The notes: generated by a model from the letters alone, not told the origin. Positions 25,060 through 42,662 are shown, numbered from the stretch's first letter. The stretch is 64,000 nt of DNA from Candidatus Chisholmbacteria bacterium (GCA_963704905.1 CAVPHZ010000001.1:259438-323437), one strand, 5' to 3'. A program made the numbers and translations.

Positions 25060-25060
25060 T

Positions 25061-26197: not shown

Positions 26198-26215
26198 TGA
26201 AATTAGTTGATGCTA

Positions 26216-27151
26216 TTACTCTTCGCTGTCGAGAAGTTTTGTGATTGTTGGAAAGACACTTATATGGTCAAAGTTTAATGGCAATACTGATCCAATTTTT
26301 ACTGGTATGTCATCGAACGCGTATATTTCGTTTCGAAATACTTTTGTCTTCAATAGAATGGTATATGTTACATCCTTTAATACAGGATCTGTTACTTCCA
26401 GTGGTTGTCCCATGTCAGTAATTACAATTCTTCTAGCTGGCACTATCTCATTTGACTCTATTTTAACCAATACATTTTTATTTGAATCGAGAATCTTGTC
26501 ACCAACCTTCACTGCATCGGCTATTTCCGGTAACACTCCGTACACATCTGAGTACTCTCTTGAAGGGTAGAGAAGCTTTGCTTCAAGTTCTACAACTTCT
26601 GTTTCGTAAATATCCTGAATGTTGTTCACATCTGTTACAAGACCGTCAAATTGAATGGTGGAAAAATTAAACTGAAGAGGGGTTCCAAACGCCAGCTTTT
26701 GACCTTTAATTGAATATGCTTTGCTTCTGGAGTCGTATACTGCTCTTGTTTGAATCGTAAGATATACTACTTTTCTAGGAATGGTATTTGAATCTGAAAA
26801 GTAGTCTCCTCTTAATTCGCGTGGTTGACTAACATCAAATGATTCGACATCGACAATTTGAGAGTTTATTCTCCCTAAAGCATCTTTTTCCACATCACCT
26901 ATTTGAAATCTGTTCGCAAACCAACTCAAAGGTTGTGTTCTGGCATAAAGCAAGTCACGATCTGTTACTTTAACCCGTAGCTCAACAAATTCAGTCTTTC
27001 TAAATAAAAAAATAAAAACTCCTATTAGTACCGCTCCTAATACTACAAACAGTACGTAGTCTATAGTTCGTAGTGAGAGTTTTTTTAGCAAGTCTCCAGC
27101 TAATATGCTCTGCCATTTTTTCCTTAGTGTCATCATTATAGTCTCACTCAT
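26216..27151 (-). CDS. Hypothetical membrane-anchored extracytoplasmic protein
   Basis: 311 aa, a single N-terminal TM (IDYVLFVVLGAVLIGVFIFLF); no recognisable catalytic motifs; overlaps the Wzy-like gene by 4 nt. Confidence 0.3.
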   Translation of the reverse strand: MSETIMMTLRKKWQSILAGDLLKKLSLRTIDYVLFVVLGAVLIGVFIFLFRKTEFVELRVKVTDRDLLYARTQPLSWFANRFQIGDVEKDALGRINSQIVDVESFDVSQPRELRGDYFSDSNTIPRKVVYLTIQTRAVYDSRSKAYSIKGQKLAFGTPLQFNFSTIQFDGLVTDVNNIQDIYETEVVELEAKLLYPSREYSDVYGVLPEIADAVKVGDKILDSNKNVLVKIESNEIVPARRIVITDMGQPLEVTDPVLKDVTYTILLKTKVFRNEIYAFDDIPVKIGSVLPLNFDHISVFPTITKLLDSEE

Positions 27152-28614: not shown

Positions 28615-29412
28615 AATTCTCCCTTTTATATTCTCATTCGGTCGTGGAATTCATTTCATTATTTTGATCAATGTATTGAATCTGTATTCAAACAACATTT
28701 TAATGATTATACGATTTTGTTCGTTGATGATTGTTCTGAGTATACCAAGGATCAAAAACAGCACATCAAACAGCGCCTGAGTGGTCATATTGTTGTATTT
28801 AACAAAGAGCGCAAGCATTCACTTCGCAATGCCTATGAGATGCTGCGCACTTATGTTTCTGACGATACTTCGATAATTTTTAATCTCGATGGGGATGATT
28901 TTCTTTCAAGCCCTAAGGCATTTCAAATAATTCAGGACACCTATCAGCAAACGAATTGTTTATTAACTTATGGGGAGTGCTTTGTGCTAAAAAATTCCTG
29001 GACACCGTCGAGATATTTGCCATCTCGTTACGTACTTAAAGGTTTGAATATCCGATACCCTTCTGACGTTGAGAAAAATAATTTGTATCGAAAGGATTAT
29101 TTTCGTCCGCTTCATCCCCGAACATGGAAGGTGGATCTCTTCAGAAAAATTAGACTACAGGATTTACTCGATGACCACGGTAAGTGGTTTACCACATGTG
29201 AAGATCAAGCAATGTATTTTCCAATGCTCGAAATGAGTGGAGGTCGTTACCATGTTTTAAGGCAACCCTTATATTACTACAGAACAGGTCATGTGATTTC
29301 TGATGAGGTGTTACATCGCTCGCTACAACTACAAGATGAGAGGGATATTCAAAAAAAACCACCATACTCTCCCTTGGAAGAACAGGCAAGTAACTTAAAA
29401 CATAATATTTAG
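28603..29412 (+). CDS. Glycosyltransferase family 2-like
   Basis: ILIRSWNSFHYFDQCIESVFKQHFNDYTILFVDDCSE...LDGDDFL. Track start 28561 is GTG and overlaps the upstream gene; first ATG is 28603. Confidence 0.6.
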   Translation: MKLHNSPFYILIRSWNSFHYFDQCIESVFKQHFNDYTILFVDDCSEYTKDQKQHIKQRLSGHIVVFNKERKHSLRNAYEMLRTYVSDDTSIIFNLDGDDFLSSPKAFQIIQDTYQQTNCLLTYGECFVLKNSWTPSRYLPSRYVLKGLNIRYPSDVEKNNLYRKDYFRPLHPRTWKVDLFRKIRLQDLLDDHGKWFTTCEDQAMYFPMLEMSGGRYHVLRQPLYYYRTGHVISDEVLHRSLQLQDERDIQKKPPYSPLEEQASNLKHNI

Positions 29413-29434
29413 TTGAGAAAATATTGAAATTTTT

Positions 29435-30574
29435 TCATATCTTCATTGAGAATCGCGTTTTTGCTTTTTCATGAATGATATTTGTGATCCGCCGATTTGC
29501 TACTGCCCATGACCATTCTTTTTCCATCTCTCTCGATGGTTGTCTTATATAGTTGGTGGGGAAAAACACTTTATATTTCATGTAGAACAATAACACTTTT
29601 TGTTGAATTTGTAAGTTATTCCTATAATTATTTACTTCTCTTTCTAGCTCCTTAGGCACAACCTCAGGAAAAAGTTCTTCCAATAACATGAATTGCCAAA
29701 ATAAATACTCTTTCAGTTTGAATTTTTTAAGAATTATAATAATTTCGTTCCATTTGATATTAGATTTATATGTTTGAATAACCTTCGCAAATTCTAACAA
29801 TCTAATCCCTAATTGAAAGTTGTGCTGTAGGAATAGGTGTAAGAATAGGCTCAATGTAAGTGTCGTGGGTGAAACTGTCGTTACATAAAGATTATGATAG
29901 TGAACCTTGTTTCTCCTTTTAAATATCTCCTGTGTAATCGCTGCAATGCTCTGATTGTTGAGAATGGGGGAGGTAAAAAAGTTATACGTATCCGCTACCG
30001 AAGTGTGTATTTCCACTCTATGACTTCCCTTTGAAAAAACTTCCTCTCTCCTTGGAAGAAAAAAATCTATTGAAGGAATGCGGTTTAGTTTTACTTCATT
30101 CGTTGATTCAGAAAGATATTGGTAACTGCTTTTAAATAAAATGTTGGTTGTTCTTTTGAATTCTTCTATAGGTATGAGTATATCAATATCATTTGGGATT
30201 TTTATTCTCTCCTTACCCCACAATTCGTGATTTCTTGCGTAGGTTTTTAAGATGATGTAATTAAGGTCTTGCGCTATTAACTCCTTGATTATCTTCTCTG
30301 ATTGTTTTTCATGCCACAGCGCCTTGAGTTGTATGTGGCGTTTCTGTTTGGTTAGGTTGTTCACAAGTTTTAGTGGGATGTGCTTTGACAAATTGTTACT
30401 TCTAAGTTGATTGATGACTACAACTTGTAAGAAGTTATTCTCTATGATATTCAAAACTTTCTCCCAGTGTAAATCTGATGTAGAGATTAGATTTTCTATT
30501 TTTCTAACAGTATTTTGTGAACGAGTGACTTCAAGTTGACAAAATAGTTTAATCAATTTAGTTTCTTTGAACAT
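29435..30574 (-). CDS. Putative nucleotidyltransferase (PF14907 'uncharacterised nucleotidyltransferase'-like)
   Basis: 379 aa; ...IILKTYARNHELWGKERIKIPNDIDILIPIEEF... resembles the G-x-R...DiDlLv pattern of that family. Family assignment is from memory of the motif. Confidence 0.45.
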   Translation of the reverse strand: MFKETKLIKLFCQLEVTRSQNTVRKIENLISTSDLHWEKVLNIIENNFLQVVVINQLRSNNLSKHIPLKLVNNLTKQKRHIQLKALWHEKQSEKIIKELIAQDLNYIILKTYARNHELWGKERIKIPNDIDILIPIEEFKRTTNILFKSSYQYLSESTNEVKLNRIPSIDFFLPRREEVFSKGSHRVEIHTSVADTYNFFTSPILNNQSIAAITQEIFKRRNKVHYHNLYVTTVSPTTLTLSLFLHLFLQHNFQLGIRLLEFAKVIQTYKSNIKWNEIIIILKKFKLKEYLFWQFMLLEELFPEVVPKELEREVNNYRNNLQIQQKVLLFYMKYKVFFPTNYIRQPSREMEKEWSWAVANRRITNIIHEKAKTRFSMKI

Positions 30575-30685
30575 TTTACTGCCTCGGAATGGTTATACAT
30601 CAAATTATTACAGCATTAGTCTTGAGAAAGTTTATATTCGTTCAAGTTTATATACATTCAATGTGGTATTTTGAATGCCTCATCT

Positions 30686-31135
30686 CTAACTATTCTTGAG
30701 TATCAAGCGATTAATATTAAGCACTCCTTTTCTTGTCAAAGACAAAATCTTTATCCTTGGGAAACGAACTGACAATCTAGTGAAAATTACTATTATGGGT
30801 GTGAGCGCTACTGTGGACAACTTTTTTTCGTAATGCTTCCACTTTCCGTCTATCTTGATGCTTGTCACTTTTCCCTCAATTATCTTTATTTTATTTCTCT
30901 GATCAAAGTGTCTATTCGCATCCGCTACTGTTTTGATACCACCATTAGTGGTCTTGATTACCCTATGAACTAGTGGGATTTCTGTTCCGTTACTTCTTAT
31001 ATAGGTAACTCCGATAATATCTCCAACTTTTATTTTCTCTTTTATAGCTCTATTTAATAACAACAGTTCGCCTTTGCGGATTGTTGGCTCCATACTTCTA
31101 CTGTTGATTCTTACTAGATTTATAAATTTTTCCAT
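30686..31135 (-). CDS. Signal peptidase I of the SipW/Sec11 (S26B, ER/archaeal) type
   Basis: 149 aa; box B NSRSMEPTIRKGELLLL, box D VGDIIGVTY...IPLVHRVIK, C-terminal TM. This is the SipW/Sec11 pattern (Ser-Met-Glu-Pro ... His-Arg-Val). Confidence 0.6.
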   Translation of the reverse strand: MEKFINLVRINSRSMEPTIRKGELLLLNRAIKEKIKVGDIIGVTYIRSNGTEIPLVHRVIKTTNGGIKTVADANRHFDQRNKIKIIEGKVTSIKIDGKWKHYEKKLSTVALTPIIVIFTRLSVRFPRIKILSLTRKGVLNINRLILKNS

Positions 31136-31272
31136 ATTTCTTATTGTGTTATTTGCTCTTTTTCACGATAATCCTAATGTTCCTTATCACGTAATTTTAC
31201 CCTACTAACATTAATCGATTTGCTCATTCTCCTTTTCGCAAATTAATTGGTAGAATAATCTTCTAATACATC

Positions 31273-31899
31273 ATGAATTTTTCAAAAGGGTCAACTATTG
31301 TTGCTTTCGGAGCTCATCCAGATGATATCGAAGTTGGAATGGGTGGAACATTAGCCTATCTCTCAAGTTCATTTAAGGTTTTTCCGGTGATTGCCACTGT
31401 GCCAAATAATAAACGAACCAGAGTGAATGAAGCTAAAAACGCAGCAGCACTTCTAGGTATTCGGCAACCGATTTTTTTGAACATTTCAAAGAATGATTTC
31501 CTTTTTACACGTAAAGTAGTAACCCTTATAGACAAATTGGTTGATAAACTTGATCCAGATTATGTTTTCACTCACTGGATTGGTGATTCCCACCAAGACC
31601 ATCAAAACCTAACTAAGGTTGTAATTTCAGTTTGCAGGAAAAATCGATCTTCCCTTTTTATGTATGAAAGCATGATCCCTGGTGGGATAACGGATAAGGC
31701 TTTTCGAGCGCAGCTTTATGTTGATATTTCTGCTCATTTTAAAAAGAAAATATCCTCAATCAGAGCGAGTAAAACGCAACTCTCAAAACATGGTGCGTCT
31801 TGGCTAAAAGGAATAGAAGGAAGGTCGAGGTTGCGAGGATTTGAAATTGGAACTAAATACGCAGAAGCGTTTGAGGTGATAAAAATCGTACATAAATAG
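31273..31899 (+). CDS. PIG-L/LmbE-family deacetylase (second copy)
   Basis: TIVAFGAHPDDIEVGMGGT and HWIGDSHQDHQN motifs. Confidence 0.7.
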   Translation: MNFSKGSTIVAFGAHPDDIEVGMGGTLAYLSSSFKVFPVIATVPNNKRTRVNEAKNAAALLGIRQPIFLNISKNDFLFTRKVVTLIDKLVDKLDPDYVFTHWIGDSHQDHQNLTKVVISVCRKNRSSLFMYESMIPGGITDKAFRAQLYVDISAHFKKKISSIRASKTQLSKHGASWLKGIEGRSRLRGFEIGTKYAEAFEVIKIVHK

Positions 31900-32073
31900 T
31901 CATGAGATAACTTCTTTTTTTGACTTTTTATTTACTGAGCCGGTTTAACACCTCAAATACTAAATCAACACTATACATTTTTCTGCATTTCTTGCTAAGC
32001 TTTTGAGATTTCCTCCAAAGATAATTCCAATATTATTCCAGAAGTATATTCACTGCCATTAGTTATATTGCTC

Positions 32074-33324
32074 TTAATAAAATGTGGTAATTCCGTACTT
32101 CTTCAGTTCTTTTGAGGCGTTGTTTATTCTTCTTTTTACAACTTTCTTTGGGACTTTCGGTTCCAGTGTCGTTGATCTTGCTTCAGGTCTTTCACTATAC
32201 TCGAAGAGTGTCACCTGTTGAAATCCAATTTTTTTTATCGTATTTATCGTTTTTTGAAAATCTTTTTCAGTTTCTGTAGGAAAACCGACAATTACCTGCG
32301 TATCGATCCGTAATTCTGGATATTCCTTTTTTAATTCGAGCATTGCTATTTCTATTTCTTCAATTTTTCCCCTTCTTAGCATAAGTTTTAGTACTCTGTT
32401 GCTCCCAGATTGGATCGGACATAGAATCCTAGTAATTTTTTTTGTCTTTATAATTTTTTTCAGCTCTTCACGATAGTTGATCAACCATTCAGGATCTAGT
32501 TCTGAAATTGAAATGTTGTATTTTCCTTTATGTTTCACGATCTCTTCTAAGAGTCCTGGAAAGGTTTCTCCAATATCTAAACCATACAGTCCAACATTAT
32601 CAGATAATATATTGAATTCTTTATATCCTTCTGTGAGTCCTTCTTCGAATTCTCTTACACAGACATCTAAAGGTTTGCTTCTTAGTCTCCCGACGGCTTT
32701 CCATATGACACAATATGAACACCTTCTGCTGCATCCCCAACCAACTCTAATATGGTAAGTTCTTGCTGCAATAGAGTCAGGCCTGACATTATCAATACTC
32801 TCTAGTATTGATGGTGAAATATATGTAAGAAGGTGAACACTTTTATTTTTTAGACCATGAAAGGTGTATTTCATTGCTTTATAAAACACACTTCTGTTGT
32901 CACTATCGTTATTAACGTGAGGGAAATTGCTTTTGATATCACCTCGTTTTCTCTTGAATGTTTGATTAGCATCTCGCAGTGTAGAGAATTTAATCTTCAA
33001 GTGTGGATTTATGTTGTCAAATTTTTCAAGATTATCAGTTGCCAGCGCTTCTCCTTGGTGTATCTCTTTTAAACGCCTTGGGTTGATGTTAACAAGACAC
33101 CCAGTTACAATTAATTTTCCTTTATGTTTCTGGAGTGCACGGATTCTTTCTATCGACTTTTCTTCGTCTCTTCCTCTAAACGCACATGTATTTAAGATCA
33201 TTGTATTTGCTAAAGCAGGATGCCCGATCCAGTAATAGCCATTACTCGTAAAATAGCTTTTCATTTTTTGGGTGTCCAATAACCTTCTAGGACATCCTAA
33301 TGATTCGATATACACTGTCTTCAT
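32074..33324 (-). CDS. Radical SAM methylthiotransferase (MiaB/RimO/MtaB family), no TRAM domain
   Basis: N-terminal MTTase domain (VYIESLGCP...NTCAF...VTGCL) and radical SAM HIRVGWGCSRRCSYC; 416 aa. No C-terminal TRAM-like domain visible. Confidence 0.7.
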   Translation of the reverse strand: MKTVYIESLGCPRRLLDTQKMKSYFTSNGYYWIGHPALANTMILNTCAFRGRDEEKSIERIRALQKHKGKLIVTGCLVNINPRRLKEIHQGEALATDNLEKFDNINPHLKIKFSTLRDANQTFKRKRGDIKSNFPHVNNDSDNRSVFYKAMKYTFHGLKNKSVHLLTYISPSILESIDNVRPDSIAARTYHIRVGWGCSRRCSYCVIWKAVGRLRSKPLDVCVREFEEGLTEGYKEFNILSDNVGLYGLDIGETFPGLLEEIVKHKGKYNISISELDPEWLINYREELKKIIKTKKITRILCPIQSGSNRVLKLMLRRGKIEEIEIAMLELKKEYPELRIDTQVIVGFPTETEKDFQKTINTIKKIGFQQVTLFEYSERPEARSTTLEPKVPKKVVKRRINNASKELKKYGITTFY

Positions 33325-33531
33325 TTCACCTTACCTTTTTCAGAGTGCTTTTATATTATCTTCCCTTGATCATTCATTACCCATTGAGCTGGTGATTCCG
33401 ATCGAGAGAATCCCATTATACGCATGCATCGGTAACAGTTTTTTAAGATTTATTTTGATGCTTTGTGTCTTAACTATTTTCATTTCGATTGGTCTGTTTG
33501 AACTCTGGTAGTTACTATTCTAATCATTAAT

Positions 33532-34071
33532 TTACAATTTTAGCTCCTTTATTTCTAGGTTGTCCCATTTCTCTTTGCGTAACTGATTTTCAAAATGCGA
33601 GAATCTATAATTCTTACCATATCTTTTCACTCCTATTGTATGACGAAAGAATGTCATATGACCAACTACAGTGACTGAGTGGTATCTTTCACTTCTCATG
33701 TACGTGAGGAATCTGCACGCTCTCTCTTTTATCTCGTTGAAGCTCTCACTGCTGTCATACTTCCAATCTGGATTTTGTCTTATTTGCTGGATATGTTCTT
33801 TCCAAAAGTTACGAACAACGTCTAGTGGTTGAGCGTATAATACTTTTGGAGCAACGTATTCATAAATGAAATCAAGTATTTCGTATTCTTGAAAGAGCAT
33901 CTCAGCTGTTTGCCTTGCCCTTATTAGAGGTGATGTGTATACCTTCTCTGGTTTTAGACCTGATGCTGTGTTAAACAAATTTCCTGAAGTTACAATGGGG
34001 GTATCCTCTCTTGGGTATAATCCTTGTAAAGCATCAATAGTCTTTGCGTGCCTTAATAAGACTAGTTTCAT
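33532..34071 (-). CDS. Histidine phosphatase (phosphoglycerate-mutase-like) family protein
   Basis: MKLVLLRHAKT (RHG motif), ...SPLIRARQTAE..., VVGHMTFF. Confidence 0.65.
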   Translation of the reverse strand: MKLVLLRHAKTIDALQGLYPREDTPIVTSGNLFNTASGLKPEKVYTSPLIRARQTAEMLFQEYEILDFIYEYVAPKVLYAQPLDVVRNFWKEHIQQIRQNPDWKYDSSESFNEIKERACRFLTYMRSERYHSVTVVGHMTFFRHTIGVKRYGKNYRFSHFENQLRKEKWDNLEIKELKL

Positions 34072-34304
34072 TTATTCTGTGAATTAATAATGATTGGCGC
34101 GAGTATTTTAGCAATTCTCTTGAGTTAGTATTAGATAAACTACTTTATGAATATATTGTTAGGTTCTACAATTATTAGTATAGTTCATTTAGCACGTTTC
34201 GGGCGATAATATGATTTCTAACGTAACAGCGCAGGCTCATTGTCGAGAATACCAAGTTCGTTGCAACTTTATTCAATGTCTGGAGGTAGTACCTTAATTT
34301 TCTG

Positions 34305-35249
34305 ATGGTTGAAAAAGATGTTTCAATACTCATTTCCGGCGCAGGTGCGGCTGCTGGAATCGGTGCTATTAAGTCACTTCGTCTGGCAAATTTTAGTGGG
34401 AAAATTACGGCAATAGATAGTTCAGATTACTCTGCAGGTTTCTATCTTGCTGATAGGAACTATGTTGTTCCGCGAGCAAGAAATCCTAAGTATATTGGAA
34501 GACTGTTTGAGATTGTTGAAGAAGAGCGTATCAATCTCATTATCCCGACATCCGGTTTTGATATTTTTCCTATATCAAAACATGCGTCTGAGTTGAATAA
34601 AAAAGGCGTCGTTGTTTTTATGAGTGACTATTCAACCATGTTGTTGTGTTCTGATAAATATCAAGCGGCAATGAAGGTGTCCGCTTTTTCACCAATACCA
34701 AAGCACTACAAAACTATTCGACAAGTGAAGGAATATCCAGTTTTTATTAAACCACTTAAAGGTAAGGGTTCAATAAATTGCTATGTTTGCAAGAGTAGAA
34801 GAGAAGTTGAGGCTTATCAGCGTTTGGTTGGTGATAACTTCATTATTCAAGAGCATCTTCCTGGCAAGGAATACACTGTTGATCTATTGTCCGATTTCAA
34901 TAGAAAGGTTGTTGTGGCAGTTCCGAGACTAAGGATAAGAACTGAATCTGGGATATCTACAACAGGTAAAGTTCTATTGGATCCGAATTTGAGTAGCCTA
35001 GCGAAAAAAATATGTCATTTCATTGGCATCATTGGGCCTGCTTGCATCCAATTTAAAGAAGATCGACGTCGACAGGTGAAGTTTACTGAAATTAATCCAC
35101 GTTTGGGAGGGGGATCGATAATTTCCACTATCGCGGGGGTTAATATTCCTCGACTCCTCATAGATCTTTTCTTAAATAGATCGTTTCCAACTCCAAAGTT
35201 TCAAGAAGTACTCGTTACGAGGTATCTCGAGGAAAAATCACTCAACTAA
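34305..35249 (+). CDS. ATP-grasp domain ligase (CarB/PylC-like fold, 314 aa)
   Basis: ILISGAGAAAGIGAIKSL..., YPVFIKPLKGKGSINCYVCKS..., IIQEHLPGKEYTVD..., ACIQFKE...FTEINPRLGGG match ATP-grasp A/B/C subdomain motifs. Confidence 0.65.
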   Translation: MVEKDVSILISGAGAAAGIGAIKSLRLANFSGKITAIDSSDYSAGFYLADRNYVVPRARNPKYIGRLFEIVEEERINLIIPTSGFDIFPISKHASELNKKGVVVFMSDYSTMLLCSDKYQAAMKVSAFSPIPKHYKTIRQVKEYPVFIKPLKGKGSINCYVCKSRREVEAYQRLVGDNFIIQEHLPGKEYTVDLLSDFNRKVVVAVPRLRIRTESGISTTGKVLLDPNLSSLAKKICHFIGIIGPACIQFKEDRRRQVKFTEINPRLGGGSIISTIAGVNIPRLLIDLFLNRSFPTPKFQEVLVTRYLEEKSLN

Positions 35250-36279
35250 TGCTTTTATAATTCTTCCACAATTTTTTTAAGACGTTATCTGTGTATTTTT
35301 CTCGTATTGCTTTCCGTGAAGTATGAAATTGTAAGTTTTCCAATTCGTTTACTTCTTTCGTGCTTATTTCCAAATACCTACACGCTCGTCTTATTGCAGA
35401 GGAGACGATCGTCTTGTCTTCTATTTTTTTTCTAAAATATACTGCATCTAAGATAAACATTAATAGTCTACGCGAAAAGTACTCTTGACGAAGATTAATC
35501 AATCGATTCTGATCACTGCGAAGTTGTTTCATTAATTGAGCTTGAGATTTTTTTTCAAATATTTCATCTCGAATAGCTCTGTGCCTTTCTCCCGCAATGC
35601 TCCCAAGTGGGTCGATCCAAAATCGTCGATTCGATGATCTCATGTCTGGACTCGAGGTAGAGAATTTGTATCCTAAGTAGAAACAATGACGACTCCAGAA
35701 AATTGAAGATTCTTGTGGAAGAGGAATTTGCTCAGTAGAGAATGCGAGATTGTTGAACTTGGCGCTCACTACTCCAAAATACCCTCCAAAAAAGAATGGT
35801 CCAAATAGTTTGTTTTCGATGTTTTCTTGCCAACTAATTAATTTCATCAAGTCTGGTAAAAACACTTGTCTTTGCAACCTGACTAAGGGAAGGTATCTTA
35901 CCCTTCCTCTTAAAACGTCGGCGTTGGGGTTTTTGACAAAGTCTTTTCGTATGTTGATATAAAAATCTCTCAAGGGCCAATTGTCAGCGTCGGTACTTAA
36001 TAAATGAGTGGCTCGCTGTGAGGCGTGTTTTAATCCTTTATGTTTTGCGTACAGAGCGCCTTCTCTCTTCTCGTATATTACATCCAAGTTTATTTGTTTG
36101 TTCCATTTGTGCCAGGATTTTATCTTCCGCACCGTCGCATCCGTGCTATTGTTATCAACAATAACAAAGAGTATCTTCTGATCTTCTTGAGTGGTGAACT
36201 TCTCAAGTGCAGATACTATGTATCTTTCCTCATTATGTGTGGGGATTACCACCGCAATATCGAAATCCATGGCACTCAT
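35242..36279 (-). CDS. GT2-like glycosyltransferase with ~120-aa C-terminal extension (paralog 1 of 2)
   Basis: IAVVIPTHNEERYI...FVIVDNNSTD...LSTDADN; homologous along its length to 37374..38411 (shared GPFFFGGYF/GPYFFGSHF and ...RRL.../...RFLW... blocks). Confidence 0.65.
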   Translation of the reverse strand: MSAMDFDIAVVIPTHNEERYIVSALEKFTTQEDQKILFVIVDNNSTDATVRKIKSWHKWNKQINLDVIYEKREGALYAKHKGLKHASQRATHLLSTDADNWPLRDFYINIRKDFVKNPNADVLRGRVRYLPLVRLQRQVFLPDLMKLISWQENIENKLFGPFFFGGYFGVVSAKFNNLAFSTEQIPLPQESSIFWSRHCFYLGYKFSTSSPDMRSSNRRFWIDPLGSIAGERHRAIRDEIFEKKSQAQLMKQLRSDQNRLINLRQEYFSRRLLMFILDAVYFRKKIEDKTIVSSAIRRACRYLEISTKEVNELENLQFHTSRKAIREKYTDNVLKKLWKNYKSIS

Positions 36280-36291
36280 CCAGAATCTACT

Positions 36292-36555
36292 TTACTCAAT
36301 CAATAGTTTTTTTCTTCTTAGCTTGTTCAACAACTTCTCAACGTCAGCTTTTGCGGATAGATGGCTGACGTCATATTCTACTTTCAGTTTATTTATTATT
36401 TCGTCTTGAGATCTTGCCTTTGCTAAGAACTTCCAAATCAGAGTAGCAGATTCGTTAAGGCTGATAATTTCATCCTTTTCTTCGTCGAGGATGTGCATTT
36501 CTCCGTCCACTTCTTGGCAAATTATTTTCTTTTTTCTTTGATATTTTTTAGCCAT
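36292..36555 (-). CDS. PqqD-family protein (RiPP recognition element, RRE)
   Basis: 87 aa; ...QEVDGEMHILDEEKDEIISLNESATLIWKFLAKARSQDEIINKLKVEYDVSHLSAKADVEKLLNKLRRKKLLIE matches the PqqD consensus (vdGe..lld....i..LNeta..iW.l.....t.eeIv..L...Ydv......aDv..fl..L...gLI). Confidence 0.8.
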   Translation of the reverse strand: MAKKYQRKKKIICQEVDGEMHILDEEKDEIISLNESATLIWKFLAKARSQDEIINKLKVEYDVSHLSAKADVEKLLNKLRRKKLLIE

Positions 36556-37384
36556 CTTCGGTAATTTTCTTTATCAATATAGGAATAAAGTCTGAATCTG
36601 GGCGTAATTTTATTTGATATATGTCTACGTTGTCAATAAAACTGAAAATAAGCTTCCCGAACTCTTTGATTTCCTTTTGACTGAATAATGTATTTGGCAT
36701 AAACGGAATGTGAGAGTTCATTCTTATCAATGACAATTTATCTGAAAAACTCAGATTATTAATTTTATGCCTTTCTCCATGCGATGGAGAAAATACAGCT
36801 TTAACGATATACGGTGAATTATTATGAATATGTTGTTTAAAGATATCAAATCTGTTTGTTTCTAAAAAAGGAGAGGGATAGATAACAAATTCATTATTTT
36901 TTTTAAAAATAAACGCTGAGTTGTCCGAGAGTATCACTGATCCTGGTATTCGTTTCTTGATTAAATCTACTATTGTTGATTTTCCGCTTCCAGATTTTCC
37001 AGAAAAAATTATTGCTTTTTTTTCAATAAGAATCGATGATGCGTGAAGCACGAATCCGCCTGACTTGTGAAGAATGATATTAAAAATTCTTGCAATGAAT
37101 TGATGGACTGCGGGGTATAAAAAAATTGGTGCTTTTGAAGCGTGGATTGTGAATAAGTTGGATTTTGGATTTTGAAAAAAAGTGAGCGATATGTTTCTTT
37201 CACTGCTGTCTTTTATTTTTAATCTTGTGTGAATTAACCCTTTCTTGCTCTTGAGTTTGCACGAAATAAATTGACAGTTTTCATATAATTTTGTGAAATA
37301 TTTTATCCAATCAGACGCTGCTATAAGTTCGCACTCCATGTTTGCGTACTGTATGAATACTTGTTCATGCTTGCTACTTTTCAT
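36548..37384 (-). CDS. HPr kinase C-terminal-domain-like P-loop kinase (HprK_C, PF07475-like), as found in RRE-associated kinase pairs
   Basis: 278 aa; GGFVLHASSILIEKKAIIFSGKSGSGKSTIVDLI...VILSDNSAFIF = HprK_C-like P-loop; overlaps the PqqD gene by 8 nt. Confidence 0.7.
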   Translation of the reverse strand: MKSSKHEQVFIQYANMECELIAASDWIKYFTKLYENCQFISCKLKSKKGLIHTRLKIKDSSERNISLTFFQNPKSNLFTIHASKAPIFLYPAVHQFIARIFNIILHKSGGFVLHASSILIEKKAIIFSGKSGSGKSTIVDLIKKRIPGSVILSDNSAFIFKKNNEFVIYPSPFLETNRFDIFKQHIHNNSPYIVKAVFSPSHGERHKINNLSFSDKLSLIRMNSHIPFMPNTLFSQKEIKEFGKLIFSFIDNVDIYQIKLRPDSDFIPILIKKITEDG

Positions 37385-38411
37385 CTAGATACCTGTTCAT
37401 TTTCACATTAATTTGTTTTAATACATCAGCTTCTAAGCGGTTGAATATTTTAGCTTGATTAACTATTCCATTTTCTTTCGTCAAGAGTTCCTCCGTATGG
37501 TTAATAAATCCCAGTGCCTTCTGCATTGCCCTTCTGGCGTTATGGTGGATTTGATTAGTTTGAACCCAGAAAACATAAGCATCGATCATTGACCAGAGAA
37601 ATCTCTTTGAAAATTTAGCCACTAGTTTTCCTTTCAACTTACTCGCTTCATTATCTGACATTCTTTTAAATTGTATTCCTTGATCGCTTACATCTTTGTC
37701 ATATGGTGAGCTCACATTTCCTATATATTCCGCAATTGTTCTCTCTTGGTAGAGTAGTATTCTTCTGTCGTGTGGCTTAACAGCGAGTTTTGAACGCAAA
37801 AATTTTCCGCCAAGATAATGGCATCTTCTGGAAAGTAAGATGTCTTCGCCCATATACTTTTCATGATTCTCGGGATTAAATAAAAGAATATTTCTATAGA
37901 ACTTGGTTCGGATTGCAAAGTGTGATCCAAAGAAATATGGTCCAAATATTGAGTATTCAAGATTCCATATTTTTCTTTGCATGTTTACAATCTCTGGAGC
38001 TGTAATTTTTTTCCACAACCTAATTCTTGGATTGATTGCTTTTCTGCCAGACAGAATATCTATACGCTCCTCCGCAAAAGAGTCGACAGTAGATTGGATT
38101 AGGTTTGATGGAAACGTTGTGTCGGCATCGGTGCTAATTAAAATGTCTGATGATGTTTTTGAAGCCTTATCTAAACCTGTCCTTCTGGAGTATACCGTCC
38201 CTTGTCGTCTTTCTTGAATGATGCTGTAGGTGATGCCAGATTTTCTGCAGAACTCTTCTATGATTTCTGGAGTCTTGTCTATGCAATTGTTATTTACAAA
38301 AATTACCTCCCACTTAATATTGGATGCTGTTTGTTGATTAGCGAGGCATATTAAGGTATTCGTTATGTAGTATTCTTCGTTGAAAAATGGAATAACTACT
38401 GCACAGTTCAT
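37374..38411 (-). CDS. GT2-like glycosyltransferase with C-terminal extension (paralog 2 of 2)
   Basis: CAVVIPFFNEEYYI...VIFVNNNCID...ISTDADT; same architecture as 35242..36279. Confidence 0.65.
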   Translation of the reverse strand: MNCAVVIPFFNEEYYITNTLICLANQQTASNIKWEVIFVNNNCIDKTPEIIEEFCRKSGITYSIIQERRQGTVYSRRTGLDKASKTSSDILISTDADTTFPSNLIQSTVDSFAEERIDILSGRKAINPRIRLWKKITAPEIVNMQRKIWNLEYSIFGPYFFGSHFAIRTKFYRNILLFNPENHEKYMGEDILLSRRCHYLGGKFLRSKLAVKPHDRRILLYQERTIAEYIGNVSSPYDKDVSDQGIQFKRMSDNEASKLKGKLVAKFSKRFLWSMIDAYVFWVQTNQIHHNARRAMQKALGFINHTEELLTKENGIVNQAKIFNRLEADVLKQINVKMNRYLDEK

Positions 38412-39076
38412 CTCTTGTTTTGCTTTGCGTACTGTCTGAAATCGATTAAGTCGATCCTTTTCCTCTTAATAGCATTTTTGACTTTATCACTGGTTAACAC
38501 CTCTACCTCTCTGTTTCTTTGCATGCGGTAGGGATCCTTCAATCGGTTACTTGTCCACCCGGGATGACAGATCAGCTCTGTACTACCTGGTTCTAATGAA
38601 TCCAAACAACTGATCAAGTGACTCGTGCTGATGTTCTCCGGTGTAGGTCTTCCGGAGATTAAACCATAGAACCTCGTCTCTATGTAATGATTGTTGTCAT
38701 AACGAAATTCAAGCTGTTGTTTCTTGACCAGCATACGTATTTTAAAATACATTTTTTTGGAAAATTTAAACCCTTTATGATAATCTAGATGCGTTGGTTT
38801 GAACTTAAAATACCTTTGAAAAACCCCTAGTTGTTCATTTGTCTTTGCTACGATACTTTCTGCTGTGATATTTTTATCTTCGACCTGTATGTGAATGCCC
38901 CAATTGATATCACTGTTTTGTTGAACTAACTTCTGAGTGTGTGAAAGATGGTTTCTATTTAAAAGAATGCTTGTTGAAGTAACAATTCCTTTTCTAATTG
39001 CATACAGTATTCCATGACTAATACCTGGACTAATGCCGAAGTCGTCGGCATTCACAATTAACTTTCTAGATTGCAT
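38408..39076 (-). CDS. YdjC/ChbG-family carbohydrate deacetylase
   Basis: LIVNADDFGISPGISHGIL... plus THLDYHKG and CHPG motifs of the YdjC family. Confidence 0.7.
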   Translation of the reverse strand: MQSRKLIVNADDFGISPGISHGILYAIRKGIVTSTSILLNRNHLSHTQKLVQQNSDINWGIHIQVEDKNITAESIVAKTNEQLGVFQRYFKFKPTHLDYHKGFKFSKKMYFKIRMLVKKQQLEFRYDNNHYIETRFYGLISGRPTPENISTSHLISCLDSLEPGSTELICHPGWTSNRLKDPYRMQRNREVEVLTSDKVKNAIKRKRIDLIDFRQYAKQNKR

Positions 39077-39115
39077 TGGGAATATTTTACTTAAAAAAGC
39101 AACATTCTTGAATTG

Positions 39116-39226
39116 TTAGTGCTCTGCGTAGAAGCTTGAAATAAATTTCTCTGTTTTGAGCTCTGGTTTAACGTATTTTTTTCGGTTTGTCTTCTTCTCT
39201 TCTTGCTTGTTGATCTTTCTCATCAT
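39116..39226 (-). CDS. Candidate small ORF (36 aa, Lys-rich): MMRKINKQEEKKTNRKKYVKPELKTEKFISSFYAEH; possible precursor/substrate peptide of the downstream RRE-kinase-GT operon
   Basis: Hand-translated on the minus strand. Strong SD AAAGGGGGTG 5 nt upstream of ATG (39224-39226), TAA stop at 39116-39118. Lies 39 nt upstream of the YdjC gene on the same strand and below the ORF-track size cutoff. Confidence 0.4.
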   Translation of the reverse strand: MMRKINKQEEKKTNRKKYVKPELKTEKFISSFYAEH

Positions 39227-39263
39227 TCACACCCCCTTTACCTCCATACTTTGGTATATCTCA

Positions 39264-39293
39264 AGGTTAGCATGCTTCTTGAGTAGTTGTCAA
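39264..39293 (-). promoter_or_regulatory. Sigma70-like promoter for the small-ORF/YdjC/GT2/kinase/PqqD/GT2 operon
   Basis: Minus strand: consensus -35 TTGACA (39288-39293), 18-nt spacer, -10 TAACCT (39264-39269), ~35 nt upstream of the small-ORF ATG. Confidence 0.4.
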
Positions 39294-39405
39294 GTTATTA
39301 TTTAGTGATGGTAACAATGTGAAAATGATTAAAAATCAGTGTATCTTGTTCTATTCTTTCTTGCTTACGTTACAATAAGTTAATATCTGTACTCTTAATC
39401 TAGAA

Positions 39406-40044
39406 ATGAGATCGGAAAATCCTTATAAAACTCTTGAAAAAATTGAATCTGTTTGCAAAAAATGCAACATTCCAACAATTGGAGTAAATACTGGTGAGGT
39501 TTTGTCGTTGCTTGCAGCTTTACATAAACCTCGAAAGATACTGGAAATCGGAACAGGAGGTGGATACTCGACAATTTGGATTGCAAGTAAGTTAACGCAT
39601 AACTATTTCATTGATACAATTGAAAAAGACAAAAGCGTGTATTCCATAGCCATGAAAAATATTACAAGCACTCGATTTTCAAATAATATTCATCTCATCC
39701 ACTCTGATGCTCTCACTTGGATAAACAGAAAAACGAATGAAGAGTACGATTACATCTTTGTTGATGGAAAGAAAAGTGAATACCATCGATATTTAGAGTC
39801 ATGTAGACCTCTTCTTAGAAAAAAAGGGCTGATTATATTTGATGACACTTTGTTCTGGCTGAAAAAAAATACAGATACTGCTCGGGCCTTTAAGACAAGA
39901 AAAGAGAAGATTTTCCATATCCTGAAGATGAAAAGGCTTGAGGTATATTTTAGAGATTTTAATAGGAAATTCCAGAAGAATTCTCAATACAATGCGGTAT
40001 TCATTCCCATAGAGAATGGTTTAACCATCGGTCAGAAGTTATAA
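39406..40044 (+). CDS. Class I SAM-dependent O-methyltransferase (family 3, caffeoyl-CoA-OMT-like)
   Basis: KILEIGTGGGYSTIWIA..., YDYIFVDGKKSEY..., GLIIFDDTLFW. Confidence 0.65.
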   Translation: MRSENPYKTLEKIESVCKKCNIPTIGVNTGEVLSLLAALHKPRKILEIGTGGGYSTIWIASKLTHNYFIDTIEKDKSVYSIAMKNITSTRFSNNIHLIHSDALTWINRKTNEEYDYIFVDGKKSEYHRYLESCRPLLRKKGLIIFDDTLFWLKKNTDTARAFKTRKEKIFHILKMKRLEVYFRDFNRKFQKNSQYNAVFIPIENGLTIGQKL

Positions 40045-40082
40045 GCGAATTTTACTTAGAGCTCTTTCTATTCGTAGTTATT

Positions 40083-41111
40083 ATGATTATTCTCAAACAG
40101 ATTGTTTTTGCTTTTTCTTCGATGCTGTTCTTCTTTTCGCTTGGAAGGTGGCCATTTTTTAATTGGCGTTATCGATACGTTTTACCTCTATCAGCTGTTT
40201 TTTCTTTTACATCTCTGGTTTATACACTCTCTCAGTACAGATTTTCGTACTATGAGTTGTTCCTGCTTTTATTACTCTTGCTGTTTAGCTTAATCTATGG
40301 AAAGAGAAGAAAGTATTATGGTGGTTCAACGCTTTTTCAACAAATGTCACATGGCTTGATTACTGTCGAAGAAAATAAATCAAAAAATATTCGAGTACTA
40401 AAGCGAGATGGAAAAACTACCTCAGGTATCGAGCTAACAACCCAGCAGCCGACTTCAAAATTGCTCTGGTTTCCTCATCTTTCAGAGCTTTTCCCTTTTA
40501 AGATAACGCGTGTTCTTTGTATTGGAGGTGGAGCTTGTGCTTATCCAATTTATGCTTTGAAAATGAATCCAGAAATGTATATGGATGTCGTTGAAATCGA
40601 TCCGGTAGTTGTTGAGGTAGCTAAGAAGTACTTTCCTCTTCCAATAGCTAGTGGCTTTAAACTTATTCAAGATAATGCTTTACGATGGCTTAAGAAAAAT
40701 CACAAAAAGAAATATGACCTCATTTTTGTTGATGTAGGAATTATCTCGTCGGTTTCACAAGTTTCATACAACACTCAATTCCTGAATGAAAACGCTTTAA
40801 AAGATTATATAAGATGTCTATCTAAGAATGGCACAGTAATGATAAATATTATGATGACCTTACTTTCTGGAGATATTAAACTAAATTATGAGTTGCTTTC
40901 TGCCTTTAATAAATCTTTTCGATCCTATCTCGCGTTTGTTACTAATCCGATAATCGACAAGGCTCAATTGAATGACGTCCTGCACATCTTCAGTAGACAG
41001 AAAGTTATTCAAGGTCTACTTAGAAAGAAACTATCCTTAACACCCGAAGACCAGTTGTCATTTAATAAGAACGATTATCTACAGATGCTTGACTCTCGTC
41101 AGGTTGGTTAG
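40083..41111 (+). CDS. Membrane-anchored spermidine-synthase-fold (aminopropyl/methyl-transferase-like) protein
   Basis: 2-3 N-terminal TMs then RVLCIGGGACAYPIYALKMNPEMYMDVVEIDPVVVEVAKKYF and YDLIFVDV, matching the spermidine/spermine synthase Rossmann motifs. Confidence 0.5.
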   Translation: MIILKQIVFAFSSMLFFFSLGRWPFFNWRYRYVLPLSAVFSFTSLVYTLSQYRFSYYELFLLLLLLLFSLIYGKRRKYYGGSTLFQQMSHGLITVEENKSKNIRVLKRDGKTTSGIELTTQQPTSKLLWFPHLSELFPFKITRVLCIGGGACAYPIYALKMNPEMYMDVVEIDPVVVEVAKKYFPLPIASGFKLIQDNALRWLKKNHKKKYDLIFVDVGIISSVSQVSYNTQFLNENALKDYIRCLSKNGTVMINIMMTLLSGDIKLNYELLSAFNKSFRSYLAFVTNPIIDKAQLNDVLHIFSRQKVIQGLLRKKLSLTPEDQLSFNKNDYLQMLDSRQVG

Positions 41112-41127
41112 TTTAATACGTTAACAT

Positions 41128-41889
41128 TTACTTTTTTTTGGGGGGGGTGTATTTGAAGTTGTATTCTTTTTCATAAAGGCGAATAATTCCTTTTGGGGTG
41201 CTTTTTGCTCGAATCTCGCCATTGAATAACCAAATAGCTCGATTGCAGATTTTTTTCAGTAACTCAAAAGAGTGTGTAGCAATAATTATTGTTTTTCGTT
41301 TTTTCCTAAACTCGTTAATTTTATCTAGTGATTTTTGTTTGAAATTATTATCCCCAACAGAAATATTTTCATCTAGAATAAGAACTTCTGGTGAGGCATG
41401 AATAGCAATGGCAAAACTTATTCGTAGCTTCATTCCGTCTGAGTATGTATATAATGGCGCATCGATAAACCCACCGATGTCCGCAAAGGTTGTAATGCTT
41501 TTTAGTTTTTTTACGATTTCATTTTTATCCATTCCAAGCAATAAACCATTCAAGAAAATGTTTTCTTCCCCGGTTAAATCTGGGTGAAACCCAGCTCCAA
41601 GTTCAATGAGGGATATAATTTTATGCTCACAGAGAATGCTACCGTACGTAGGGGTTGTTATCCCTGCCATAATCTTAAGAAGGGTTGTTTTTCCTGATCC
41701 ATTTGCCCCGAAGATACCAACTGAGTCTCCTTTAAATACTGTTAAGTTTATGTCCCTTAGGGCGTAGAATTCTTCAGTTTTTTTTCTTTTGAAAATATTT
41801 TCTACTAGCGTAGGTTTCTCGTGATGAACGACATACTTCTTTCCAATGTGCTTAAGCTTAATGATAGTTTCTCTCATTTTTACAACCAA
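41128..41889 (-). CDS. ABC transporter ATP-binding protein, Wzt/TagH/KpsT type (glycan export)
   Basis: Walker A GANGSGKTTLLKIMAGI, signature YSDGMKLRISFA, Walker B LILDE. Confidence 0.8.
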   Translation of the reverse strand: MVVKMRETIIKLKHIGKKYVVHHEKPTLVENIFKRKKTEEFYALRDINLTVFKGDSVGIFGANGSGKTTLLKIMAGITTPTYGSILCEHKIISLIELGAGFHPDLTGEENIFLNGLLLGMDKNEIVKKLKSITTFADIGGFIDAPLYTYSDGMKLRISFAIAIHASPEVLILDENISVGDNNFKQKSLDKINEFRKKRKTIIIATHSFELLKKICNRAIWLFNGEIRAKSTPKGIIRLYEKEYNFKYTPPKKK

Positions 41890-42662
41890 TCAACGAAGTA
41901 TGGACTTTCCCTTATGAATATGTAGATCCCAACACATATAACAACCATGCTTATCACTAAATTGGTCATCATCAGTTGAACATTTATTAATCCTTGATTC
42001 AAAATTGCCATATGAAATAACTCAAAAATACTTGTAAGAGGGTTAATTAAAAATAGCTTATGTAAAGAATCTGGGATGATACTTAAGTTATAAATAATTG
42101 GTGTTATATAGAACCACAAGATTAGCGCTGATTGAATAAAAAAGTTTATGTCTCTAAAGCGCACCTGGAGGCTTGATGTGATTAGAGACAAACCAATCGT
42201 AAACATTAGCAGCCATACAAGAGCTGGTAACATTATAAGTATCTCGGGAAATAGGAGTTTGTTGGTTAATAATAAAAATATTCCTAGCAAAAATAGTGAA
42301 ATTAAAAGGTGGATAAAGTTAGAGAATATCATTGAAATCGGTATTACTTCCTTTGAAAATTTCGTTTTTTGCAGTAATGATCGCTCATTAACGAAACTTG
42401 GGGTAGTCTTAGTTACTGAGAGTAGAAAAAATTGCCATGGTAATAATCCTGTAAATAAAAATAGGAAATAGTCAGGTATTCTAATATACAAAGAAAAAAT
42501 TAGACCGATGATTGTCATTTGAAGCAAGGGGTTAAGTAAAACCCATAAAAAACCAAATATTGCCCTTTTATATCGAGCTTTTATCTCTCTTTCGGTCATC
42601 ACCCAAAGAAAGTCTAGATATTTATTCATATTTTCTCTAGTTTTTTTTCTACGAATGAGCAT
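41880..42662 (-). CDS. ABC-2 type permease (Wzm/TagG/KpsM-like)
   Basis: 260 aa, 6 TMs, ABC-2 family pattern; overlaps the ATPase gene by 10 nt. Confidence 0.75.
   Translation of the reverse strand: MLIRRKKTRENMNKYLDFLWVMTEREIKARYKRAIFGFLWVLLNPLLQMTIIGLIFSLYIRIPDYFLFLFTGLLPWQFFLLSVTKTTPSFVNERSLLQKTKFSKEVIPISMIFSNFIHLLISLFLLGIFLLLTNKLLFPEILIMLPALVWLLMFTIGLSLITSSLQVRFRDINFFIQSALILWFYITPIIYNLSIIPDSLHKLFLINPLTSIFELFHMAILNQGLINVQLMMTNLVISMVVICVGIYIFIRESPYFVDWL

Follow-up and report, generated by a model that had tools for sequence, protein, structure and literature searches.

Two GT2 glycosyltransferases linked to a PqqD-type recognition element, an HprK-like kinase and a short peptide: candidate tailoring enzymes of a RiPP-like pathway

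The gene clusters for linear polyphosphorylated peptides (LPPs) of Bacillota, defined by Popov et al. (Nat Commun 2026; PMC13381572), consist of a precursor with a YxxP leader, an HprK-like kinase (LppK), a discrete recognition element (RRE) of the kind used in pathways for ribosomally synthesised, post-translationally modified peptides (RiPPs) (LppB), a SipW-like peptidase (LppS), a PF14907 protein (LppN) and an MsbA-like pump. YxxP is the motif bound by lasso-type discrete RREs; LppK places several phosphates on one serine, LppS is an RRE-guided leader peptidase, and LppN was inactive in the authors' system, for which a missing partner outside the core cluster was proposed (PMC13381572). The clusters are embedded in capsule loci and were described as restricted to Bacillota, and neither their final product nor its function has been established (PMC13381572). 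Among the lasso peptides, the PF14907 protein PsmN is needed to attach hexoses to the phosphate on the C-terminal serine of pseudomycoidin, and the same authors noted a kinase-containing lasso cluster with a recognisable glycosyltransferase (PMC6993621). Here we describe a related locus within a 64,000-nucleotide stretch of bacterial DNA (CAVPHZ010000001.1:259438-323437; “the window” hereafter), in which two paralogous family 2 glycosyltransferases, GT2-A and GT2-B, are encoded together with a PqqD-type RRE, an HprK-like kinase and a 36-aa peptide.

We consider it moderately probable that GT2-A and GT2-B act in the cytoplasm as dedicated tailoring glycosyltransferases in a RiPP-like pathway related to the phosphorylated lasso peptides and the LPPs. 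The initial annotation of the window had already put them forward as candidate peptide glycosyltransferases; the precursor-like gene, the lasso-B1-like PqqD protein and the linkage to the kinase gene at 11/11 loci give that proposal strong contextual support, but the enzymes themselves are not of the SunS/ThuS type with which they had been compared. Peptide-directed glycosylation is the best reading of this strict and unusual gene linkage and, from its gene context, the 36-aa peptide is most likely the acceptor. The locus is then most likely a relative of the LPP clusters in which a GT2 and a sugar deacetylase have become fixed in the operon, a sugar-adding variant of the peptide pathway described in 2026, and it offers a candidate for the glycosylation chemistry that is missing from the LPPs.

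The window resembles an LPP cluster in that it encodes an RRE together with a kinase of the HprK-like type, a signal peptidase I of the archaeal type and a PF14907 protein, the kinase matches being weak but consistent (8/10 orthologues). YxxP in the precursor, the lack of a lasso cyclase and the envelope-polysaccharide setting are further points of likeness. The two differ, however, in what lies at the core, where the window has GT2 and YdjC genes whereas the co-occurrence table of the LPP study gives 19 counts of Glycos_transf_2 around 126 peptidases and no YdjC. They differ also in the exporter, which is ABC-2 and TagGH/Wzm-Wzt-like here rather than MsbA-like, and in the precursors, which for the window type are 30-36 aa long with a conserved C-terminus and have neither xVLxHQxIxFETxxS nor a long variable core. 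The RRE of the window scores higher against TfuB1 and TbiB1, the B1 proteins of actinobacterial lasso clusters, than against 9x8z and 9x90, which from their molecule names we take to be the RREs of the LPP study. Furthermore, the host here is probably outside the Bacillota, as the size of its genome contig (772,908 bp) and its low G+C point to a CPR-like bacterium with a small genome.

With the phosphorylated and glycosylated lasso peptides (paeninodin, pseudomycoidin) the locus shares the enzyme set of kinase, RRE and PF14907 protein, but the glycosylation of pseudomycoidin depends upon the PF14907 protein and not upon a GT2. Neither an Asn-synthetase-like cyclase nor a B2 transglutaminase-like protease was found among the open reading frames (ORFs) scanned at 23908-42662 of the window, nor was either present among the called genes of the related loci examined.

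Gene order and linkage of the cassette

The two 345-aa ORFs reported in the initial annotation at 35242-36279 (GT2-B) and 37374-38411 (GT2-A) are present on the minus strand at exactly those coordinates; the public gene call for GT2-B (P0001) starts three codons later and so gives 342 aa. Both lie in a tightly packed minus-strand operon with the order YdjC, GT2-A, kinase-like protein, PqqD, GT2-B (Table 1). That the pair flanks the HprK-like and PqqD genes within one overlapping operon was also correctly seen, as the gene ends overlap or nearly touch: the overlaps are 4 nt for YdjC and GT2-A, 11 nt for GT2-A and the kinase gene and 8 nt for the kinase and PqqD genes, and a gap of 12 nt separates PqqD from GT2-B. 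The 36-aa peptide ORF, 39 nt upstream of YdjC on the same strand, heads the operon.

The family to which the two enzymes belong is small. Word-seeded searches of 5.8 billion clusters returned 8 full-length relatives of GT2-B and 15 of GT2-A, and a profile search of 1.84 billion representatives gave ~55 full-length family clusters, beyond which the matches were to generic GT2 proteins over the N-terminal ~120 residues only. Rarity of this order (~55 clusters) fits a specialised role. Linkage was examined in the neighbourhoods of P0003, P0005, P0027, P0030, P0028, P0040, P0041, P0065 and P0089, together with locus L009 and the window. At each of these 11 distinct loci the ScmC-like kinase gene comes immediately after the GT2 gene, and this holds even for members with only ~20-28% identity to the window proteins; the PqqD gene comes after the kinase gene wherever the contig extends that far. 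The recurrent set comprises the peptide, YdjC, GT2(-A), kinase and PqqD, with GT2-B present in one clade, and YdjC is part of the cassette wherever a locus has enough sequence. Further recurrent genes encode an S24/S26 peptidase, a PF14907 transferase, a membrane protein resembling spermidine synthase and an ABC-2 exporter, and in L020 most of the cassette genes stand in a single gene string. Two loci, L008 and L009, carry the cassette in separate parts, peptide-YdjC-GT2A-kinase and PqqD-GT2B-peptidase, which suggests two functional sub-modules. These parts lie at 2726-5398 and 9209-11862 in L008 and at 5321-7973 and 9736-11435 in L009.

A profile scan of genome contigs gave one true locus (L009) and one irrelevant one (L010), and a scan of metagenome contigs with the family alignment gave generic GT2 fragments only. 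Literature searches covering RiPPs, PqqD, glycosyltransferases and Patescibacteria gave no published description of the cassette. L009 (CAYSMC010000015.1) is the only locus from the genome collection with the full cassette; it belongs to a metagenome-assembled genome labelled 'uncultured Pseudomonadales bacterium', as at the other loci, its proteins have a high content of Lys, Asn and Ile, and the bin assignment may therefore be wrong.

The same neighbourhoods can be read in another way, in which the GT2s decorate a cell-envelope glycopolymer (teichoic-acid-like or polysaccharide) in the cytoplasm before its export through the TagGH/Wzm-Wzt transporter, as TarS, TarP and RmlT do, and the peptide, PqqD and kinase form a separate or regulatory module that only accompanies the glycan locus. 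The ABC transporter beside the cassette matches ATPases of teichoic-acid export at 3e-62, the window between 17 and 43 kb has Wzy_C, GT2, GT4 and PIG-L genes and a lower G+C, Bac_transf, Glyphos_transf and PMT_2 genes occur at the related loci, and the LPP clusters are likewise embedded in capsule loci (PMC13381572). However, the order GT2-kinase-PqqD, with its overlapping stop and start codons, persists while the surrounding glycan genes differ completely, and the rarity of the family and its tight tie to an RRE are hard to explain by hitch-hiking. For these reasons we regard decoration of an envelope polymer as possible but rather unlikely.

The candidate precursor peptide and partner enzymes

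The peptide ORF is preceded by a purine-rich GGAGG / AGGGGG stretch and encodes a Lys-rich N-terminus, YxxP and a conserved C-terminus, F[IV][AS]SFYAE[HYW], the window version ending in SFYAEH. The exact window sequence is absent from a collection of 15 billion proteins, and therefore it has never been called as a gene; homologous genes of 35-36 aa have been called in some metagenome contigs (L004, L005, L006 and L020). Every related locus that is sequenced far enough has a precursor-like ORF: homologous small ORFs stand directly upstream of YdjC in L001/L002, L004, L005/L006, L007, L008, L009 and L020, and in L022 a related ORF is found just downstream of PqqD.

Nine peptides, from the window and the related loci, were aligned, and only two columns, both Tyr, are invariant. 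The first Tyr opens Y-x-x-P in seven peptides and Y-x-G-L in those of L008 and L009; of the longer LPP precursor motif, YxxPxVLxHQxIxFETxxS, these peptides share only YxxP, and they end 15-19 residues past its Tyr. Eight to nine residues past the first Tyr there is E/D-K/N, and two hydrophobic residues are also part of the pattern. The second Tyr comes 15 residues after the first, and translation stops a further 3-4 residues on (5 in L004). Cleavage immediately before [F/A]-Y would fit the signal-peptidase rule, since in 9/9 peptides position -1 would then be Ser, Ala or Thr and position -3 Ile, Val or Ser, and it would leave a core of 5-6 residues (FYAEH in the window) in which Tyr is the sole invariant residue. 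A very short conserved peptide such as this would be a small substrate, easy to follow by mass spectrometry.

Alternatively, the short peptide could be a ribosomal primer or carrier rather than an antibiotic-type product; its invariant C-terminal Tyr or a nearby phospho-Ser/Thr would be glycosylated in the cytoplasm by this GT2 family, the glycan or phosphoglycan then being elaborated and exported by the TagGH-like transporter to give a surface polymer reminiscent of glycogenin and teichoic acid; GT2-B would here act independently of a base, forming a sugar-phosphate or Tyr-linked bond. We hold this to be distinctly unlikely. If true, it would mean a peptide-primed surface polymer in what appears to be a small-genome host.

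For the tailored peptide that we favour, the candidate binding protein is the PqqD protein, which is closest to the lasso B1 proteins: it matches the NCBIfam families lasso_PqqD_Strm at 2.8e-13 and lasso_PqqD_Bac at 1.5e-9, and its best PDB sequences are TfuB1 (6jx3) and TbiB1 (5v1u), at ~6e-4. The kinase-like protein has the Walker A sequence GKSGSGKST at 129-137, a GxSGxGKST P-loop, and LHASS at 113-117. The window protein matches the NCBIfam families HprK_rel_A at 1.7e-4 and ScmC at 1.1e-3; each of these is matched by 8/10 orthologues, the best value being 6.8e-6, and orthologues also carry the precomputed annotation PF27840 (ScmC). A search of the PDB with the kinase profile retrieved the P-loop region of the PEP carboxykinase (PEPCK) 1j3b but not HprK itself; HprK and PEPCK belong to a common fold class. 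An HprK-related P-loop protein is paired with a protein of the PqqD family also in SynChlorMet (ScmC/ScmD) and in the systems of the HprK-related kinases A/B (TIGR04249, TIGR04352, TIGR04355), but the window kinase scores ~20 bits against cutoffs of 125-200, and SynChlorMet-type cassettes centre on radical SAM/SPASM enzymes and not on GT2.

Removal of a leader could fall to the 149-aa peptidase, which matches TIGR02228 (sigpep_I_arch) at 1e-13, with 51.5 bits against a cutoff of 51.85. It has SRSMEP (Ser14) and VHRV (His57), the latter placing His where bacterial enzymes have Lys, and its gene is directly downstream of GT2-B in L001, L004, L005/6, L007, L008 and L009. The PF14907 protein has NDIDIL at 128-133 (D-I-D) and is 32% identical to the L020 protein (E 1e-61), and its gene adjoins the cassette in L004-L008 and L020. 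The ATPase of the exporter matches the teichoic-acid export ATPase family at 3.2e-62 and the permease matches galactan Wzm at 1.4e-20; at most loci orthologues with 42-58% identity adjoin the cassette, and in L020 they belong to the same string of genes. The spermidine-synthase-like protein has N-terminal hydrophobic segments in the window and is conserved next to the cassette at nearly all loci, with orthologues in L001, L004, L005, L007-L009, L020 and L023. Its gene was located at 4790-5851 in L004, 5747-6532 in L005, 8056-8898 in L007 and 9543-10652 in L020, in the last case in the same string, after PqqD.

Catalytic motifs, C-terminal domain and relatives of the GT2 pair

It is clear that GT2-A and GT2-B are paralogues and belong to GT2, as the initial annotation had it: they are 28% identical over 289 aa (BLASTP, E 2e-29), far beyond chance, and both pass PF00535 with scores of 61 and 70 bits against the Pfam cutoff of 23.3. 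The motifs quoted for them were all recovered (VVIPTHNEERYI / VVIPFFNEEYYI, DNNSTD / NNNCID, STDADN / STDADT). The DxD motif is D95/D97 in GT2-A (STDADT, 93-98) and D97/D99 in GT2-B (STDADN, 95-100), and in the family alignment it is kept in 12/12 sequences of the GT2-B clade and in 43/45 other members; the nucleotide-binding motif DNxSxD is fully retained in the B clade.

The two enzymes part at a second position. Some 93 residues past DxD, where the helix after the central strand begins, the family has an acidic pair, [E/D]-D, which is E189-D190 in GT2-A; the aligned columns of GT2-B are S191-S192, with E190 just upstream. The Asp of this pair is present in 44/45 non-B sequences and is Ser or Thr in 12/12 B-clade sequences, and the Glu two residues upstream of the lost Asp is kept in 11/12 B-clade proteins. 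From spacing and secondary structure, without superposition, we take the Asp190 column to correspond to the general-base Asp of inverting GT2s (SpsA and the cellulose-synthase type). Judged by its motifs, DxD and E189-D190, GT2-A would be catalytically complete. GT2-B has NRRFW at 217-221, where GT2-A has DRRIL; the form [N/S]RR[F/L]W is present in GT2-B only and is reminiscent of the acceptor-sugar-binding motif QxxRW. Neither GT2 has the combination of Q(R/Q)xRW with a transmembrane channel that marks the processive cellulose-synthase-like class.

Since the orthologues of GT2-B are at least as conserved as those of GT2-A (40-54% against 34-45% identity to the window proteins), and since DxD is kept in 12/12, GT2-B is under selection and not decaying. 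Because the distant systems L019, L020 and L022 show a single GT2 in the available sequence, it is most likely a clade-specific duplicate. The earlier suggestion that the duplication reflects two successive sugars or two acceptor sites is not supported as it stands; the distant systems have one GT2, and GT2-B has lost the Asp at the catalytic position. GT2-B may use an acceptor that needs no base, such as phosphate, rely on a relocated base (the upstream Glu), or serve a non-catalytic role.

In the non-catalytic case GT2-B would be a substrate-binding or scaffolding subunit that acts together with PqqD to offer the (phospho)peptide to the peptidase or GT2-A, so that a single sugar is transferred; such a role is compatible with the model that we favour for GT2-A. 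In its favour, the near-invariant Asp of the family is Ser or Thr throughout the B clade (12/12), and distant systems manage with a single intact GT2. In the split loci L008 and L009, moreover, GT2-B is found with PqqD and the peptidase, and GT2-A with YdjC and the kinase, and the basic C-terminal domain of GT2-B, with a net charge of +12, would suit a polyphosphorylated ligand. Yet DxD (12/12) and DNxSxD are fully kept, which is unusual for a pseudo-enzyme, and the base could be supplied by the conserved Glu two residues upstream; on balance a GT2-B without catalytic activity seems unlikely to us.

Beyond the GT-A fold, both enzymes have a C-terminal domain that is predicted to be all-helical, with four to five helices. 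The AF2 model of GT2-B (pLDDT 90.9, pTM 0.88) has the GT-A domain up to ~residue 230 and helices at 243-344, and a separate model of the C-terminal domain (pLDDT 91.2) shows a unit of four helices; in the full model this helical domain forms one compact fold with the GT-A domain. The likeness of the two ~120-aa extensions that had been claimed holds in part: an R-x6-D-A-x2-F motif is invariant (R271, D278, A279 and F282 in GT2-B numbering, all on one helix) and the helical prediction is common to both, but the sequence similarity is weak, with only 11-19% identity between the two subfamilies. The last 120 aa of GT2-B contain 27 K+R against 15 D+E and are strongly basic, with a net charge of +12.

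A fold search of the PDB with the C-terminal domain gave no match, the best E value being 2.6, and for that reason the domain is not of the TPR, RRE or TarS-/TarP-type. An identity as TPR or RRE was thus rejected, and the earlier idea that the extension might be a TPR or other peptide-binding groove is not borne out. The domain probably forms the acceptor site or contacts the kinase. A rare GT2 subfamily with an unmatched C-terminal domain could also serve as a marker for genome mining.

There is no transmembrane segment in either protein: the highest 19-residue Kyte-Doolittle value is 0.97 for GT2-B and 0.95 for GT2-A, with no 19-residue segment above 1.6. Hydropathy thus rules out the extension as a membrane anchor, which the initial annotation had named, together with a clustering among dolichyl/undecaprenyl-phosphate sugar synthases, as what would undo the idea of a peptide glycosyltransferase. 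The same property bears on whether the GT2s could be polyprenyl-phosphate sugar synthases of the GtrB/DPM1/ArnC type, which would place GlcNAc onto undecaprenyl phosphate for deacetylation by YdjC and transfer beyond the membrane by a GT-C enzyme (PMT_2 or DUF2298). A pathway of this shape is ArnC-ArnD-ArnT, in which ArnD deformylates, a role that can be likened to that of YdjC. The best PDB matches, by sequence and by fold, include GtrB, DPMS and ArnC; L001, L004 and L005 have PMT_2 genes no more than a few kb away; the window encodes a DUF2298 membrane protein at 10381-12693; and transfer to a phosphate can do without a general base, which would account for GT2-B. However, neither paralogue has a transmembrane or strongly hydrophobic segment (0.97 and 0.95, as above), in contrast to GtrB, ArnC and archaeal DPMS; the matches to such enzymes span only the N-terminal 110-150 residues; and no PMT_2 gene lies near the cassette in the window, L007, L008, L020 or L022. 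Further, this explanation leaves the RRE, the kinase and the peptide without a role, and we think it very unlikely. The DUF2298 protein (plus strand, 2.3e-90) is ~25 kb from the cassette and could be a GT-C-type glycosyltransferase; it bears only on this lipid-linked-sugar explanation.

Searched against the PDB, the family profile matched PcManGT (6yv7) at 2.8e-16, TarS at 5e-13, GtrB at 2e-12, DPMS at 1e-10 and ArnC at 3.5e-9, with SunS (7msp) at 0.0027 and ThuS (7msk) at 0.039. The matches to GtrB, DPMS and ArnC cover positions ~4-154 (Foldseek E ~1e-8), a similarity which is common to most GT2s and does not discriminate between them. Foldseek against the PDB returned PcManGT, GtrB, RmlT, TarS, DPMS, WrtF, BcsA and hyaluronan synthase with TM-scores of ~0.37-0.48, and therefore only the GT-A domain matches; SunS and ThuS were absent from the top 50 fold matches. 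A SunS/ThuS-like identity is thus not upheld, the profile values of 0.0027 and 0.039 comparing with 3e-16 to 1e-10 for PcManGT, TarS, GtrB and DPMS. With SunS and ThuS the window enzymes have in common a GT2 catalytic domain of the GT-A fold, an added helical C-terminal region and, as we infer here, a ribosomal-peptide acceptor, but the sequence relation is marginal and the C-terminal domain matches no PDB fold (E<1). The acceptors of glycocin enzymes are Cys or Ser in helix-loop-helix peptides, whereas the window peptide has no Cys; to our knowledge, glycocin pathways have neither an RRE nor a kinase.

TarS, TarP and RmlT are among the best sequence and fold matches and, like the window enzymes, are GT2s with C-terminal domains beyond the GT-A fold, which is the structural argument for the decoration of an envelope polymer. 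These enzymes act in the cytoplasm on a phosphate-rich acceptor that is later moved by a TagGH exporter. The similarity is nonetheless one of the GT-A domain only (TM-score ~0.41-0.46); the C-terminal domain of the window GT2s is unrelated, matching neither TarS, TarP, RmlT nor any other PDB entry, and the genes that accompany them encode an RRE, a kinase and a peptide. The pairing of a GT2 with a deacetylase that acts on the transferred amino sugar is shared with HpnI/HpnK and ArnC/ArnD, and the window YdjC matches HpnK at 5.9e-17. In the hopanoid pathway HpnI transfers GlcNAc and HpnK then deacetylates; the YdjC enzymes ChbG and HpnK act on N-acetylglucosaminyl groups. The acceptors there are lipids, whereas the window has no hopanoid context and GT2s without a membrane segment.

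Proposed pathway and surrounding genes

Gene content, paralogy, conservation patterns, the lack of transmembrane segments and synteny were observed directly, and from them we infer each of the chemical steps that follow. The PqqD RRE would bind the precursor (39116-39226) via YxxP, to judge from the motif and the family, and the ScmC/HprK-like kinase would phosphorylate a hydroxyl near its C-terminus, by analogy with PadeK, PsmK and LppK. GT2-A would then move an N-acetyl-hexosamine from a UDP-sugar, to be deacetylated by YdjC according to the logic of HpnI/HpnK. GT2-B might glycosylate a nucleophile that needs no base, for example the phosphate, to give a phosphodiester-linked sugar as in pseudomycoidin; alternatively, it might extend the first sugar using NRRFW, or serve as a binding subunit. 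The archaeal-type signal-peptidase-like enzyme would remove the leader just before [F/A]-Y. Further groups may be added by the PF14907 transferase, and the product would leave through the TagGH-like ABC-2 transporter. If the acceptor is indeed phosphate or Tyr, the reaction would be an unusual one for a GT2, and if the product does leave through a TagGH-type pump, ribosomal peptides would be linked to the export of envelope polymers.

Several points weigh against this pathway. No Ser/Thr column is invariant among the nine peptides, and the residue before the aromatic-Tyr pair is Ala in L020. LppK rejected Tyr in place of its Ser (PMC13381572), which makes the phosphorylation site ambiguous here. 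The kinase assignment itself is a tentative one, from scores far below the family cutoffs. In sequence and in fold, the catalytic domains resemble GT2s directed at polymers and lipid phosphates (PcManGT, TarS, GtrB, RmlT and DPMS) far more than the peptide GT2s SunS and ThuS. Asp190 is assigned as the GT2 general base by spacing and secondary-structure position rather than by superposition, and the upstream Glu could substitute for it. Finally, the locus lies inside a large envelope-glycan region, and its exporter is of a type that moves lipid-linked polymers.

Table 1. Features of the cassette and of its neighbourhood, with positions counted from the first nucleotide of the window.
Feature	Position	Strand	Evidence
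PF14907 nucleotidyltransferase-like protein (PsmN/LppN type), 379 aa	29435..30574	-	PF14907 at 2.8e-25
Signal peptidase I-like protein of the archaeal/SipW type, 149 aa; putative peptidase for the leader	30686..31135	-	PF10502 at 2.6e-5
PIG-L deacetylase	31273-31899	+	Pfam/NCBIfam match; insert between GT2-B and peptidase
MiaB/RimO-family radical SAM enzyme	32074-33324	-	TIGR00089 at 249.9 bits, cutoff 251; insert between GT2-B and peptidase
Histidine phosphatase	33532-34071	-	Pfam/NCBIfam match; insert between GT2-B and peptidase
ATP-grasp ligase	34305-35249	+	Pfam/NCBIfam match; insert between GT2-B and peptidase
GT2-B, 345 aa	35242..36279	-	PF00535 at 1.7e-16; orthologues P0002-P0008, 40-54% identity
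Discrete PqqD-type RRE, 87 aa	36292..36555	-	PF05402 at 1.7e-16
ScmC/HprK-related P-loop kinase-like protein, 278 aa	36548..37384	-	weak NCBIfam HprK_rel_A and ScmC matches
GT2-A, 345 aa	37374..38411	-	PF00535 at 2.7e-19; orthologues P0018-P0031
YdjC-family carbohydrate de-N-acetylase	38408..39076	-	PF04794 at 1.4e-30; NCBIfam chitin disaccharide deacetylase 1.2e-34; HpnK 5.9e-17
Candidate precursor peptide, 36 aa, MMRKINKQEEKKTNRKKYVKPELKTEKFISSFYAEH	39116..39226	-	conserved small ORF at operon head
Membrane-anchored spermidine-synthase-like protein (aminopropyl/methyl-transferase fold)	40083..41111	+	PF01564 at 6.5e-8
ABC-2 exporter, TagGH / Wzm-Wzt type	ATPase 41128-41889, permease 41880-42662	-	family matches and orthologues at related loci

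Four genes are inserted between GT2-B and the peptidase gene (31273-35249), and no orthologues of them were found at the corresponding place in the other loci; their products may serve as additional tailoring enzymes, acting on the peptide or its sugar. Radical SAM/SPASM genes were also seen near the cassette in L004 and L008.

The G+C content of the window is 0.34-0.37 at ~20000-44000, against 0.39-0.44 in the flanks. This low-G+C region is rich in envelope-glycan genes, with several GT2 and GT4 genes, two for PIG-L, a DUF4330 gene and methyltransferase genes. Two Wzy_C proteins are encoded at 17020-19152, this one also with TPR repeats, and at 27148-28614. UvrD-family helicases, apparently unrelated to the GT2 finding, are encoded at 14549-16357 on the plus strand and at 46272-49115 on the minus strand; the latter also has a fused PD-(D/E)XK nuclease domain, pointing to an enzyme of the AddA type.

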